The position numbers were made by a program, and so were the translations under genes. From positions 2,877-66,876 of the forward strand of contig JAIMAN010000001.1 of NCBI GenBank assembly GCA_023511915.1: a stretch of DNA of 64,000 bases, given 5' to 3'. The stretch comes from Armatimonadota bacterium (GTDB lineage: Bacteria; Armatimonadota; Fimbriimonadia; Fimbriimonadales; GBS-DC). Shown here one piece after another: positions 18,470 through 27,889 of the stretch (the stretch's first letter is position 1; each line of letters starts with the position of its first letter). The notes beneath the pieces are model-generated. The model did not search any database and had not been told where the DNA came from. It saw nothing but the letters and a program-made list of their open reading frames with translations.

Positions 18470-21400
18470 CTATTGCTTGCGCTCGCGTTTGGTTTTCGGG
18501 GAAGCGCGATCGCCGTCGGTGGGGTCTGGCGCGTCAGCCTCCCCGGCTGCTGGACGCAGGGTAATCTCCAAGGCGGGCGCGTCGCCGTCGGTGGGGTCTG
18601 GCGCGTCCGCCTCACCTGCTGCGGGGCGCAGGGTAAGTTCGAGGGCAGGCGCGTCGGGCGAGGAGTCGGCAAGGCGCAGGGTGCTTTCCGTGTTGGGCGC
18701 GCCGCCGTCGGTTGCCTGCGCCTCGCCGTCGTCCGCCGCCAGCTCCTCTTCGAAGAGCGTGCCGAGCGTCGGCTCGCGCGTTTCGACGACCGCCGCCGCC
18801 TCGTCGGCGCGTGCGCCCCACTCGAACTTTGGCTCGAAGCGCGGCTTCACATACCCTGTACCCGCAGGAATCAGCCGCCCGATAATCACATTCTCCTTCA
18901 AGCCGACCAGTTCGTCCACCTTGCCGCGCACCGCCGCCTCCGTGAGCGCTTTGACCGTGCGCTGGAACGACGCCGCCGACAGGAACGACTCGGTCTGCTG
19001 CGCCGCCTCCGAGACGCCCAGCAGCACCCACTCTGCAGTCGCGGGTCGCCCGCCCTCGGCGATGACCTTGCGGTTGGCGTCCTCGAACACGAAGCGGTCG
19101 ACGGTTTGTCCAGGCAGGAAGTAGGCGTCGCCGGGGTCGATCACGCGCCGCTTGCGCAGCATCTGGCGGATGATGACCTCCAGGTGCTTGTCGTCGATGT
19201 CGACGCCCTGCGCCTTGTAGACCGCCTGAATCTCGCGGATGAGGTACTCCTGCACGCCGCGCACCCCGCGCAGGCGCAGCAGCTCGTGCGGGTTCAGCGG
19301 TCCGGGCGTGAGGCGGTCGCCCGCCAGCACTGTGTCGCCCTTGACCACCTCCAGCGAGCCTTGCGGCGGCACCAGCACCGCGTCCAGCACTGTGACCTCT
19401 TGGACGCCTGCTTCGTGCAGGCGCGTCAGGTGCGCGGCGCGAATCTCGTCCATCTCGCTGACGATGGGGTTGCCCCGCGCGTCTTCGATGGTCTGCAGGC
19501 TCATCTTGCCCACCAGCAGGTCGCCGACGGGCAGCGTGGCTTTGATGACCACCCAGCGCCCGACGGAGCGCACGACATCCACCACCTCGCCTGCGTAGTC
19601 GACAGTGATGGCTTCGCCTTTGGGCTTGCGCGCCTCGAACAGCTCCTCTACGCGGTTGATGCCCGAGTTGGGCGGCTCTTGCAGTTTGTTCAGTCGGCGC
19701 AGCGAGTCGCGCGTGCGCTTTTCGATCTTGTCCTCGCCGTCGCTGGGTTCGTCGGTCGCAAGCACGGGCACGGGCTTGCCCAACTGGTTCGCCGCGACTT
19801 TGAGCAGCACATGCTTCTGGTCTTTGCTGAGGTCGAGGGTTTGCGCCTCTTCTTCATCTTTTTTGGATTCACTTCGCACTGCGACAGGATATTCCACGAT
19901 GGAACATTTTTCGCGTTGTAGATGGGCGATTACCTTCTGTCGTAAATTGTGGAGTTCTTTGAGTTTCTTGATATCAATTTTGTCTCCTTTTCTCAGTAGG
20001 ACTTTCTTGTCGCCGATCGGAGACACAAGTTCCTTGTCCTTTTCATACACCGAGCCAACTCCCTGCGCAATGATCTCACGCACATCAGAGATAAACGGCA
20101 CAAACTCGCGCGTCTTTTGGTCATCCTTTATTTTGTCACGGTAGATTTGAGGAGTATTCCAACTGAAGCCAGATGCCGTAAACGACACTCGCAGTTCATT
20201 TATGGCGCTATGCAGTCTTTGCTCGATCAACAACAGATCTTCATCACTGGGCAAGAGAATTTGCTTACCAGTAAATGGATGCCTTACATCCTCGCGAAAT
20301 GCTTTGCCTAATTCACAACTCTCTACTTTACGACACATCCTCACAAACTCTGCTACCCTTCTGGCAAGTTCTTCTATCTCTTTGGCAGATCTTTCGTCGA
20401 TAGCCCTACCAGCGGTAGCCAACACTTTCTTAGTGTGTGGATCAAATAGAGTTCGCTCTGGTACGCGTCCTTTGAGCTGATCGACTTTAGCGTCCACTGG
20501 TTCGAAACTTCGCTCAACTGCTTTCATCTTGAAAGACGCAATTACCTGTCCGCTTCCCGCTACACCACTTGCGTGGAACACACGCATGGTCAGCTGCGTG
20601 CCGGGTTCGCCAATCGACTCGGCGGCGATGATGCCGACCGCTGTGCCCAGCTCCACGGGGCGCAGCGTGCCCATATCCAGTCCGTAGCACTTGGCGCACA
20701 CGCCTTGGCGCGTGTTGCAGGTCAGCGGCGAGCGGATGGGCACGCCCACGCGGTCATGCTCGACCCACTCGTAGCCCGCTTGGAGCCACATGGTGCGGAT
20801 TTCGTCGCGCCGCGCGTGCAGCCGATCCATCACTTCCTGCGTGAGCATATCGTAGGGTTCCAGCAGCGTTTCGCCGGTGATGGGATCGCGCAGCGGCTCG
20901 TCGTCGGTCGGCGTGAACAGTTCGAACTCGTCTTTGCCCGACAGTTCGCGCAGCGTCTGGGTGAACCGTTCGGTCGCCTGCGCCAGCGCGTCAAGTTCGG
21001 TTGCTACCGCTTCGGGGATGATTTCGTTCTCGGCGACGAGGGGTTCGCCCGTGATGGGGTGGCGCAGGTCGCGTCGGGCAGTGCGTCCGCGAATACGCTG
21101 GAACAGCGTTTCGATGAGGTCGCCCTCGCGCTCGATGCGGCTGACGACGATGCCTTCAGGCGTGCCGCAGTCGTGTTCGCGGATGACCACATCCTGCGCC
21201 ACATCGCACATGCGACGGGTGAGGTAGCCCGCGTTGGCGGTTAGCAGCGCGGTGCTTGCCAGCCCGCGCCGTGCGCCGTAGCCCGACACGAAGTATTCCA
21301 GCGTGGTCAGCCCCTCTTGGAAGTTGTGCTGCACGGGCAACTCCTCGACCAGTCGCTCGCCGCCTGAACGGAAGTCGAACCCGCCCATCATCAAGCCGCG

Positions 21401-23827
21401 CATGCCGACCAGCTGCGCCAGCTGCTTGGTGGAGCCGCGCGCGCCCGAATCGGTGATGATAAACAGCGGGTTGTCGTCGCGCAGCTCTTGCAGCATCACT
21501 TTGGACACCTCGTCGTACACGCGCTGCCAGAGCTGGATTTTGCGCTGGCGTTTCTCGTCTTGGGTCAGCTCGCCGCGGTCGTACAGCTCGTCAATCCGAC
21601 GCGCCTCTTCCGCTGCTTTCTGCAGGATGGCGTCGCGCTGCGCAGGAATCGCCATATCGGTCAGCGCGAAGGTAATCCCGCCGCGCAGCCCCCACTCAAA
21701 CCCCAGCGCCTTCAGGTCGTCCAAGAAGCGCACCGTGCGCGCGTGCCCGCAGGTCTGGTACACCGCGCGAATCACCGCCGAGAGCATCTTCTTGTTGTAG
21801 ACCACATTGAGCCAGTCAGGGTGATAGCGCAGCTCGTCGGGCATGATTTCGTGGAACATCAGTCGCCCGATGGTGGTCTGCACGAATTCGGGGTCTTGGG
21901 CGTTCGGGCGGACAAGGCGCACCTCGATAGGCTCGTGCAGCCGCGCGTCGCCGCGCTCGAACGCCAGCCGCGCCTCTTCGGGGTTCGCAAACCGATAGCG
22001 CACCTCCTGCTGGCGCTGCGGGTCGCTCATCGTCAGGTAGTACGCGCCCAGCACGATGTCCTGCAGGGGCGAGACCACAGGCGAGCCGTCGGCGGGCTTG
22101 AACAGGTTGTGCGTGGAGAGCATCAGCGTGCGCGCCTCCGCCTGCGCGGGGAACGACAGCGGCACATGCACCGCCATCTGGTCGCCGTCGAAGTCGGCGT
22201 TGTAGGCGTGGCACACCAGCGGGTGCAGCTGAATCGCCTTGCCCTCCACCAGCACGGGTTCAAACGCCTGAATGCCCAAGCGGTGCAGCGTCGGCGCGCG
22301 GTTCAGCAGCACGGGATGCTCCCGAATCACCGACTCCAGCGCCTTCCACACTTCGGGCAGCTGGCGGTCGATGGCGTTCTTGGCGTTTTTGACATTGTTG
22401 GCGAGTTGGTCGCGAATCAGCCGTTGCATCACGAACGGCTTGAACAGCTCCAGCGCCATCTCTTTGGGCAGCCCGCACTGGTGCAGTTGCAGCGTCGGTC
22501 CGACCACGATCACCGAGCGTCCCGAATAGTCCACGCGCTTGCCGAGCAGGTTCTTGCGGAAGCGTCCCTCCTTGCCCTTGAGCATATCGGAGAGCGACTT
22601 GAGCGGGCGTCCGCCTGTGCCAGTGACGGGCTTGGAGCGTTTGGTGTTGTCAATCAGCGCGTCCACCGCCTCTTGCAGCAGTCGCTTTTCGGAGTTGAGA
22701 ATGCTCTTGGGCGCGCGGATTTCCATGATTTTGCGCAGGCGGTTGTTGCGGTTCACGATGCGCCGATACAGGTCGTTGAGGTCGCTGGTGGCGAACCGTC
22801 CACCGTCGAGTTGCACCATCGGGCGTAGCTCGGGCGGCAGCACGGGCACGGCGTCCAGGATCATCCATTCGGGGCGCGTCTTGCTGTTTTTGAACGCCTC
22901 GACGATTTCCAGGCGTTTGATGGCGCGGGCGCGGCGCGTGCCCTGCGTCTTGCTGATTTCCTCGCGCAGCTCGCGATCGAGCTTTTCGAGGTCAATCTCC
23001 CGAAGCAGCTCGCGGATCGCTTCCGCGCCTTGCCCGACGCGCACCAGCGGGCGCAGGTCGCGCTGCAGCCTGCGCGCGCCCGTAATCAAGAGCTGCTCAA
23101 TCGCCTGCCAGCTGCTCTCGTCCAGCAGTTCGTAGCGCTGCAGTTTGGCGAGCCGTTCGATGGCTTTCTCCATCTCCTCCAGCAGGCGGGCGCGCTCGCG
23201 GCGCTCACTCTCTTTTCGGCTTTCGTACATCCGCACGCGCTCCGCAATCTGCTGTTCGGTGAGCGTGTCGGCTCCCTCTTTCAGCTCGCGTTCCAGTCGC
23301 GCGTCCAGCTCCAGAAACACGCGCTCGATTTCCGCGTCGAAGTTGCGCTTGGCTTCCTCGACCATGCGCTGCAGGTCGCCGAGGTTCTGCTCGATGCCCG
23401 CGCGGTCGATGTCGATGACCATGTAGTTCGTGAAGTAGATGACTTTTTCGAGTTGGCGCGGCGAGATGTCGAGCAGCAGTCCGAGCGGGCTGGGCGGCTG
23501 CCCCTTGAGGTACCACAGGTGGCACACGGGCGCGGCAAGTTCGATGTGTCCCATCCGTTCGCGTCGCACGCGCGCGCGCGTGACCTCCACGCCGCACCGC
23601 TCGCAGCGGATGCCCTTGTTTTTGACGCGCTTATAGCGTCCGCAGGAGCATTCCCAGTCGCGCGTGGGACCGAAGATGCGTTCACAGAACAGCCCATCGC
23701 GTTCGGGCTTGAAGGTGCGATAGTTAATCGTTTCGGGCTTTTTGACTTCGCCAAACGACCACGCCCGAATATCGTCGGGCGAGGCGAGACCGATTTTAAT
23801 CGCCTTGATACGCGAGATGTCCGCCAT
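18470..23827 (-). CDS. rpoC: DNA-directed RNA polymerase subunit beta-prime, unusually long (1785 aa)
   Basis: The translation shows the N-terminal zinc motif [43 protein letters not shown] and [12 protein letters not shown]. Its extra length comes from a trigger-loop insertion and a repeated C-terminal tail. Confidence 0.97.
18511..18654 (-). repeat. 2 x 72 bp tandem repeat encoding a duplicated 24 aa acidic/Pro-rich tail of beta-prime
   Basis: The units start at 18511 and 18583. The peptide is APALE(L/I)[18 protein letters not shown] repeated twice. The two DNA units differ at roughly 11 positions but at only one amino acid. Confidence 0.9.
19665..20572 (-). other. lineage-specific insertion of about 300 codons in the beta-prime trigger loop; 19850-20572 is AT-rich
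   Basis: The insertion lies between ...[13 protein letters not shown] and ...[16 protein letters not shown]. My G+C counts on 60-nt lines are 22 at 19921, 28 at 20161 and 27 at 20281, against 43 at 20701. Confidence 0.85.
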
Positions 23828-23839
23828 AGAATCTTCACC

Positions 23840-27889
<4,050 letters not shown>

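Follow-up and report, generated by a model that had tools for sequence, protein, structure and literature searches.

In the trigger loop of the beta-prime subunit of bacterial RNA polymerase (RNAP), Escherichia coli and other Gram-negative bacteria carry SI3, or beta-prime In6 (188 aa and two SBHM units in E. coli), inserted between ...GVAG and ...TG(L/I)xRV. It is reported, in PMC11077087, to be ancient and essential in E. coli, where its loss needs a compensating trigger-loop substitution. The cyanobacterial and plastid Si3, of about 65 kDa, is composed of nine recursively inserted SBHM/HABAS units, and has grown through the recursive insertion and the duplication of units (PMC10895346, PMC11515920). 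Here we describe an insertion located at the same site in the rpoC gene of an Armatimonadota bacterium, found in a stretch of DNA of 64,000 nucleotides (GenBank assembly GCA_023511915.1, contig JAIMAN010000001.1, positions 2,877 to 66,876 of the forward strand). The whole stretch is indicated as "the window" in what follows, and all coordinates refer to it.

A different kind of module is involved in this case. It is named BEAN when referred to beta-prime bD5, where it features a T-G-D/E motif (Alvarez-Carreno et al. 2024, PMC11515920), while the name BBM2 derives from Iyer et al. 2004, as cited in Opalka et al. 2010 (PMC2939025). BEAN insertions are reported by PMC11515920 in beta and in beta-prime bD2, bD4, bD5 and bD7; for the trigger loop (uD5), only HABAS is reported.

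On balance, the evidence described below favours a reading in which a paralog of the bD5 module is nested within an older, basal insert of the trigger loop, as part of a foreign, AT-rich patch which is in frame, constrained, and moved between related strains by recombination.

Layout and composition of the insertion

The beta-prime subunit of the window contains Pfam Rpb1 domains 1-5 and matches the rpoC model TIGR02386 with 1539 bits; the localization of its features is reported in Table 1. Between the two trigger-loop arms, 306 residues are present, versus 14 in insert-free proteins, and the starts of the arms are 319 aa apart, versus 27 aa in insert-free relatives and bacteria. The insertion is in frame and occupies the loop tip, and comparison with E. 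coli beta-prime assigns it to the SI3 site, where it had been located by an earlier note on this DNA, made by a model from the letters alone. The note had counted about 300 extra codons; two inserts are involved rather than one, a basal insert of about 85 aa and normal G+C content (GC), and an AT-rich one of about 227 aa.

The distinction is based on the comparison with relatives. The genomes nearest to the window, as found by a genome scan, are metagenome-assembled genomes of Fimbriimonadales. The basal insert, about 85 aa long, of normal GC and probably helical, is present in every Fimbriimonadales relative examined: the distance between the arms is 110-117 aa in 15 out of 15 loci where both arms could be located, and the AT-rich part is present in none of the 15. 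Loci L005 and L006 are also without it. Distances of 78-80 aa are found in other Armatimonadota, and of 201-208 aa in SBHM-bearing Planctomycetes and Bacteroidota. In the insert-less contig L002, 68 nt are found at the place occupied by 695 nt (19843-20537) in the window; this alignment, together with the order-wide presence of the basal insert, indicates that the 300 codons are the sum of a native insert and a nested domain. The AT-rich component thus consists of 16 codons of the arm plus a nested domain, whose length is about 227 aa, one allele reaching about 290 aa. Composition and identity to L002 recover from the right junction (19844-19864) onward. In two of the other contigs carrying the domain, L003 and L041, native basal residues are retained at this junction, unlike in the window; L041 also features an additional unit, located at the position of the variable linker (window aa 1224-1239).

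In the Armatimonadota loci L004-L019 and L020-L025 the trigger-loop insert is short and non-SBHM wherever both arms were located (78-80 or 110-117 aa). Armatimonadetes are listed by PMC11515920 as having a type 4 beta-prime, with two HABAS units in the trigger loop; loci L004-L025 do not show these two units.

The patch is the sole stretch below 0.50 GC in the window, when analyzed by 300-nt sliding windows (mean 0.643, standard deviation 0.044). With 150-nt sliding windows, GC is 0.41-0.49 between 19825 and 20574, versus 0.58-0.73 on either side. GC at third codon positions (GC3) is about 0.45 in codons 1086-1328 (19844-20572) and about 0.85 in the flanks; in 40-codon sliding windows it is 0.38-0.57 for starts at codons 1081-1301, versus 0.68-0.98 elsewhere in rpoC. 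The drop thus concerns synonymous sites, and is not due to amino-acid composition, such as the content in Lys, Ile and Asp, the simpler reason considered in the earlier note. Codon choice changes as well: AGA and AGG account for 40% of the 20 Arg codons of the patch and for 1% of the 153 in the remaining rpoC, and similar shifts are seen for ATA (19% versus 0%), GAT (56% versus 14%), GTA (32% versus 2%) and TTA plus TTG (32% versus 5%). The AT-rich tract begins at codon 1086, right behind the catalytic His codon, within the arm. P-x-T-G-E-like modules are found three times in the insert and twice further upstream in beta-prime. The abrupt switch in composition and codon choice, its start inside the conserved arm, and the count of the repeated modules are all as the note had them.

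The 732-nt patch contains no stop codon in the rpoC frame, versus a mean of 14.8 in shuffled sequences, none of which was open out of 200,000; the remaining five frames contain 3-20 stops each.

Other types of content were also considered. A hidden gene or RNA on either strand was ruled out, as open reading frames (ORFs) in other frames of the patch are short ones only, no Rfam match is found at E up to 1 in 19400-21000, and no promoter or terminator signal rises above shuffles. A transposon-like element was ruled out as well, no direct or inverted repeats being present at the insert junctions. Copies of the insert elsewhere in the window, such as silent cassettes, are limited to the bD5 paralog and to a weak match in rpoB (aa about 1144-1186; 24332-24460, minus strand; tblastn, 33% over 43 aa, E 0.004), which is probably another BEAN/BBM-like module near the beta C-terminus.

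Table 1. Localization of the trigger-loop insertion and related features in the window
Feature	Position	Strand	Residues	Description
rpoB	23840-27889			directly upstream of rpoC
rpoC (RNA polymerase beta-prime)	18470-23827	minus	1785 aa	ORF and translation; host gene of the insert
beta-prime bD5, pre-trigger-loop BEAN/BBM2 module	20723-21136	minus	aa 898-1035	order-specific expansion; paralogous source type of the nested domain
trigger-loop arm 1	20573-20611	minus	aa 1073-1085	13 residues; native; ends in the catalytic His
foreign trigger-loop arm segment	20525-20572	minus	aa 1086-1101	16 residues; left end of the AT-rich patch
nested domain unit 1	20159-20524	minus	aa 1102-1223	bD5 paralog; two P-x-T-G-E-like motifs
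variable linker	20111-20158	minus	aa 1224-1239	many indels; least conserved stretch between window and L001
nested domain unit 2	19865-20110	minus	aa 1240-1321	helix, strands, helix, strand, V-R-S end
right junction of the AT-rich patch	19844-19864	minus	aa 1322-1328	KKDEEEA
C-terminal part of basal trigger-loop insert	19655-19843	minus	aa 1329-1391	GC3 0.80-0.88
trigger-loop arm 2	19619-19654	minus	aa 1392-1403	12 residues

Identity, predicted fold and constraint of the nested domain

The first 122 residues of the nested domain, which form unit 1, match aa 898-1021 of the same subunit (BLASTP, 27% over 124 aa, E 1e-11), in line with the earlier claim that one module is common to the insert and to the region upstream of it. 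In 15 Fimbriimonadales loci the bD5 region is matched as well (tblastn, E 3e-9 to 2e-15), while other phyla are matched weakly or not at all. When analyzed by hhalign, unit 1 aligns with the canonical module (probability 79%, E 1.5e-5), and the canonical bD5 module, in turn, with the second BBM2 repeat of E. coli beta-i4, BBM2b (probability 80%, E 1.4e-5). BEAN homology is assigned in PMC11515920 at BLAST p below 1e-12 and HHalign above 70%; unit 1 falls within these limits, its E-values being obtained from pairwise or small-set comparisons. In a joint MAFFT alignment, the canonical bD5 module (from E..IE.L..R..GR to VRS) falls on both ends of the nested domain; three residues, G, R and R, never vary, and E, R, P, T and S hardly do. 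The positions of the T-G-D/E motif are occupied in the insert by P-H-T-K-K, P-F-T-G-K and P-I-G-D-K, where P and T are nearly invariant and the acidic residue is lost. Judged from these alignments, unit 1 is a strongly diverged paralog of the bD5 BEAN/BBM2 module of beta-prime itself, of the Fimbriimonadales type, and the repeated module spotted in the sequence may be identified as the BEAN/BBM2 signature.

Unit 2 features the helix/strands/helix/strand-VRS pattern of the BEAN module and aligns in register with it, but its hhalign scores (E 0.29 versus canonical bD5, E 0.058 versus beta-i4) are outside the same limits.

The bD5 region itself, delimited by DVAQD...DCGT and CAKCYG, is 99 aa long in most bacteria and 175 aa long here; the presence of a second P-x-T-G-E motif in the expansion indicates an internal duplication of the module. 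In its expanded form, the module (20681-21205, aa 875-1049) reaches 175 aa in Fimbriimonadales, while Chthonomonadales-type proteins have one of 153-154 aa (P0009, P0012 and P0013 were examined). A different case is P0016, a beta-prime fragment of 1050 aa from ENA, with an insertion of about 300 aa at the bD5 site, which contains Cys-rich (CxxC) motifs and a long acidic run.

Searches of Pfam and NCBIfam with the insert alone gave nothing meaningful, no SBHM-type family, nor any of the barrel-sandwich families typical of SI3-bearing proteins, being found by Pfam, and PHROGs gave nothing significant. The structure predicted by AlphaFold2 (AF2) for the whole loop from a single sequence has a pLDDT of 36. 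When an alignment of carriers and paralogs is supplied, pLDDT is 83 and pTM 0.72, and an alpha/beta structure with four long helices (20-25 residues) is predicted; local pLDDT is 75-96 for unit 1 and 84-95 for unit 2, for which the alignment is two sequences deep. In a Foldseek search of the PDB, RNAP beta-prime and beta chains top the list, with a 39-residue local match to cyanobacterial beta-prime (root-mean-square deviation 1.5 A). SI3 is not matched by Foldseek, and nothing was found among BFVD viral structures. The absence of an SBHM family and of an SI3 match, along with the alpha/beta model, indicates that the insert is not SBHM. The earlier note had anticipated this, proposing short helical repeat modules in place of the sandwich-barrel fold; the helical repeats, however, must be abandoned in favour of predicted alpha/beta units of BEAN/BBM2 type.

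The rates of synonymous (dS) and nonsynonymous (dN) change point to constraint. When the window is compared with contig L001, dS is 0.18-0.26 and dN/dS 0.04-0.12 in the flanks, while the nested domain features a dS of 0.61, a dN of 0.20 and a dN/dS of 0.33; for the nested domain of L003 the corresponding values are 0.92, 0.55 and 0.59, with a flank dS of 0.24. The nested domain is thus under purifying selection, much weaker than that on the core, and its protein sequence evolves at about the pace of silent sites in the flanks. Together with the open frame, this selection is indirect evidence that the domain would be kept in the mature, active enzyme and move as the loop folds. Strong codon bias depresses silent rates, as seen in enterobacterial genes: the higher dS of the nested domain would be within the range expected, if such a bias slows silent changes in the flanks.

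Breakpoints, transfer and origin of the patch

The patch starts at a sharp breakpoint. The 39 nt of arm 1 are 85-95% identical to 15 relatives, as the relatives are to one another; for the next 48 nt (aa 1086-1101) identity is 48-67%, versus 69-100% among the relatives. In the 15 relatives this part of the arm has an invariant TGGVAGAG start, and 11 of its 16 residues are invariant. The window features five changed residues at positions invariant in the 15 full-length relatives, and a sixth change, from Ile to Met, where the relatives hold Ile or Val; a Gly codon, GGC, has given way to TCT, for Ser. The same foreign segment is common to the window, L001 and L041. Being outside the diversity of the order, and not derivable from bD5, it must stem from a long-diverged rpoC trigger loop.

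Along the whole subunit, 20 window-specific changes are found at positions invariant in the 15 full-length relatives, all of them in aa 882-1456 (19460-21183) and none in the first 881. Two (aa 1142 and 1144) are inside the nested insert, which the relatives lack, and are probably alignment artefacts. Several of the 20 are shared with insert-less close relatives, and the set was therefore not used as evidence of co-adaptation.

The nested domain was seen in four metagenome contigs only (the window, L001, L003 and L041), which derive from three samples or more. It is not ubiquitous in the phylum; ubiquity would have told against the reading of the earlier note. The window, L001 and L041 have one left junction in common, and all four carriers show the right junction. 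The alleles are 54-71% identical to one another in amino acids and are mosaic: over the first 60 aa of the patch, the window, L001 and L041 share 85-93% identity, while identity is 48-72% in the remainder of unit 1. In L041, unit 2 is tandemly duplicated, with copies 84% identical over 159 nt, and unit 2b is 95-100% identical to L003.

Transfer may be followed in a pair of contigs from the same sample, L041 and L002. These are 98.2% identical 600-2400 nt upstream of the patch and 97-100% downstream, and where L041 has 919 AT-rich nt, L002 has 43 nt. In the 600 nt before the patch their identity is 82.7%; here L041 is 88-90% identical to L001, to the window and to the insert-less contig L042, while the distance of L002 is as expected for its position. 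A recombination tract of about 1.6 kb has carried the cassette into an L002-like strain, which shows homologous recombination directly. The same presence/absence polymorphism is observed in a second background, L042 being 95.8% identical to L001 in the backbone. Deviant synonymous composition, a sharp breakpoint (codon 1085/1086) and phylogenetic incongruence between tract and flanks all characterize the AT-rich part as a recombination patch, the interpretation originally given to it.

In the metagenome contigs from JGI, frameshifts break rpoC up into between two and five ORFs (L001, 7009-12409; L002, 7667-12276; L041, 1832-7308; L003, about 825-946), and L003 ends in an A-rich tract reading QKKKCKKKK. 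The frameshifts look like assembly or sequencing errors, not pseudogenes.

Further carriers were searched for in several collections. In a DNA-based survey of 16 species of the order (GTDB representatives, all 59-65% GC), the AT-rich domain is absent from all 16. A word-indexed protein search with the window insert gave five proteins, all beta-prime fragments of the same group, and the L041 allele gave two; an exhaustive profile search of 1.84 billion representatives gave only P0002, and two metagenome DNA scans and one viral scan gave no further carriers. No protein on record is identical to the beta-prime of the window. As even L001, L003 and L041 escaped the metagenome scans, and clustered protein libraries missed the 1368-aa ORF of L041, absence beyond the 16 GTDB representatives is weakly supported.

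However divergent, all carriers have a GC3 of 0.44-0.50. Two explanations may be given for the AT-richness: the alleles may have diverged in an unsampled pool of lower GC and entered several times, or AT-richness may be held in place.

In the reading that we favour, the cassette, made of arm and domain, would have long evolved in an unsampled relative of lower GC, or in a separate allele pool, and then been imported; between related strains, the patch moves by homologous recombination through the conserved rpoC flanks. The nested domain is tethered to both trigger-loop arms through the basal insert. By analogy with SI3 (PMC11077087, PMC4227799, PMC10895346 and PMC10120043), a domain so tethered would have to swing as the loop folds to form the trigger helices. 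It might thereby tune catalysis and pausing, and offer a surface for partners near the secondary channel and the jaw. The arm residues travel with the cassette, which suggests co-adaptation: the substitutions next to the catalytic His have probably adapted to the extra load.

Several observations weigh against this picture. The lower-GC donor postulated by the earlier note did not emerge: protein, profile, metagenome and viral searches found none beyond the carriers, and the 16 sampled species of the order are all 59-65% GC. The donors that can be traced are GC-rich relatives already carrying the AT-rich cassette, and the Fimbriimonadales-like architecture of the domain makes a low-GC source outside the order not the most parsimonious one. 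When substitutions are polarised, 23 are from weak to strong base pairs (W>S) and 16 from strong to weak (8 versus 6 at third positions); the W>S share differs from 85% with a binomial P of 0.012, in a small sample with a saturated outgroup. The absence of a clear W>S drift is unexpected for a simple import undergoing amelioration. As to the domain itself, unit 2 has no significant similarity to BEAN profiles, the AF2 alignment consists mostly of paralogs, so that the model of unit 1 leans toward the bD5 fold, and no structure of the PDB is matched globally by Foldseek at a significant level. The occurrence, in one sample, of strains with and without the domain suggests that it is dispensable. 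Finally, the strain-pair argument rests on two contigs, and L001, L002 and L041 are error-prone assemblies with frameshifts.

Among the alternatives, a maintained hypervariable plug-in, as opposed to a fading import, may be tentatively considered, although we hold it to be doubtful. Divergent AT-rich alleles and a null allele would be kept by balancing or diversifying selection in co-occurring Fimbriimonadales populations, for instance through phage- or toxin-encoded factors docking on this face of the polymerase. The alleles would be swapped through the rpoC flanks, and both the persistent low GC3 and the co-transferred arm would be properties of the allele pool.

The domain might, instead, be a tolerated passenger, devoid of a function of its own, which hitch-hikes on recombination tracts and, being an in-frame insert in an essential gene, is out of reach of inactivation by stops or frameshifts and may be removed only by precise deletion or recombination. 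An amino-acid rate 10-20 times that of the flanks, presence/absence polymorphism among strains of one sample, the variability of copy number and right junction, and absence from every GTDB species representative of the order are all in agreement with such a fate. We consider it unlikely: dN/dS is 0.33-0.59 and not 1, the parent module's signature residues have survived a divergence down to 27% identity, alleles agree at 85-93% over their first 60 residues, and a compact fold is confidently predicted by AF2, even for unit 2 (from two sequences only).

Origin in place seems no more probable than a passenger. Here bD5 would have been duplicated into the basal insert in the ancestor of the carriers, followed by a very rapid divergence biased toward AT, or by selection favouring rare or AT-rich codons, L002 and L042 being secondary losses or conversions. 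The order-specific bD5 architecture of the nested domain, with good matches only to Fimbriimonadales bD5, fits this scheme, as do the absence of a low-GC relative among the 16 species, the unit duplication ongoing in L041, and a GC3 held at 0.44-0.50 across copies at dS 0.6-0.9, with no clear W>S excess. However, reaching 27% identity to the source needs far longer than the flank dS of carriers (0.18-0.26) allows. The 16 AT-shifted arm codons, outside the diversity of the order and including the change from GGC to TCT, cannot derive from bD5, and no known process keeps synonymous sites locally AT-rich in a gene with a GC3 of 0.85. Moreover, it is the tract of L041, not that of L002, that is displaced toward another clade, indicating gain rather than loss.

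An assembly chimera of rpoC with AT-rich DNA of another organism could be suspected from the abrupt switch in composition, and because related contigs come from error-prone metagenome assemblies. It is excluded for practical purposes by the sharing of junction types among four independent contigs: the junctions are common to carriers from at least three samples, with alleles 54-71% identical in amino acids, the frame is open through 243 AT-rich codons, and the AT-rich DNA itself encodes a beta-prime paralog. Least credible of all is a self-removing element, either an intein or an intron with an ORF, leaving a mature polymerase without the insert: an in-frame position at a conserved site of an essential gene and a foreign composition are typical of inteins, but Pfam and NCBIfam give no Hint or intein family, even with E allowed to reach 1, the N-junction (K1102) offers no Cys/Ser/Thr nucleophile and the C-junction (...SES/KKD) lacks a His-Asn pair, no intron is matched in Rfam, and the sequence is paralogous to a structural module of RNAP.

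Two further regions of beta-prime, outside the trigger loop, are worth reporting. The C-terminal tail (18504-18656, minus strand, aa 1726-1773) is rich in Ala, Pro and Asp; its DNA includes 2.1 copies of a 72-nt unit repeated in tandem with 86% matches, in which a peptide starting with APALE(L/I) is encoded twice. Within Rpb1 domain 1, aa about 140-305 (about 22910-23410) form a long stretch rich in Glu, Arg and Leu, with the look of a coiled coil; as the domain spans aa 5-427 for a Pfam model of 312 positions, this is probably another lineage-specific insertion.

Comparison with known systems

Trigger-loop insertions and BEAN/BBM2 modules are already known as kinds. In the literature searched, including PMC11515920, no description was found of a BEAN-type unit in the trigger loop, nor of its nesting in a helical basal insert, nor of a polymorphic, mosaic and foreign state among close strains. 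Lineage-specific RNAP insertions are usually treated as ancient, phylum-level characters, and according to the most recent survey (PMC11515920) they tapered off after early bacterial evolution. Here, the foreign patch, the mosaic alleles, the fresh duplication and the difference within a strain pair indicate that a gain has been caught in progress. In L041 and L002, nature provides matched enzymes, one bearing a load of 290 residues on the catalytic loop and the other free of it, with which the tolerance and the effects of trigger-loop insertions can be studied. Recombination inside rpoC, in addition, can shift whole domains between related species, which matters for the use of rpoB and rpoC as phylogenetic markers.

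Like SI3, the window insert is in frame, tethered by both arms, lineage-specific and, presumably, surface-exposed. Unlike SI3, it appears to be composed of alpha/beta units of BEAN/BBM2 type with long helices, and not of SBHM/HABAS barrels; it is two-layered, with a domain nested in a helical basal insert; and, while SI3 is ancient, it is polymorphic among strains and compositionally foreign. With cyanobacterial Si3 it shares the nesting of a unit in an older insert and, in L041, tandem unit duplication. The type of unit is different, however, and growth is recent and visible among strains, while cyanobacterial Si3 is fixed in the phylum. With respect to the BEAN/BBM2 modules of bD5 and of beta-i4 (SI1), homology runs from unit 1 to bD5, and from bD5 to the BBM2b of beta-i4. 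The BEAN fold is made of two antiparallel bracket elements, each with a helix and two strands; in the nested domain, helices and strand pairs are predicted. A putative T-G-D/E motif may be recognised, but in a degenerate form (TKK, TGK, GDK), and unit 2 is not significantly similar.

A further parallel may be drawn with loci not related to RNAP. In the central region of the flagellin gene fliC and in O-antigen genes, which are of atypically low GC, mosaic hypervariable domains are exchanged via conserved flanks, through homologous recombination. The patch resembles these loci in its conserved flanks, its divergent low-GC middle, its mosaic alleles and its transfer between related lineages. Flagellin and O-antigen, on the other hand, are surface antigens, exposed to selection by immunity and phages, while the cassette of the window is located inside the catalytic subunit of a core enzyme.

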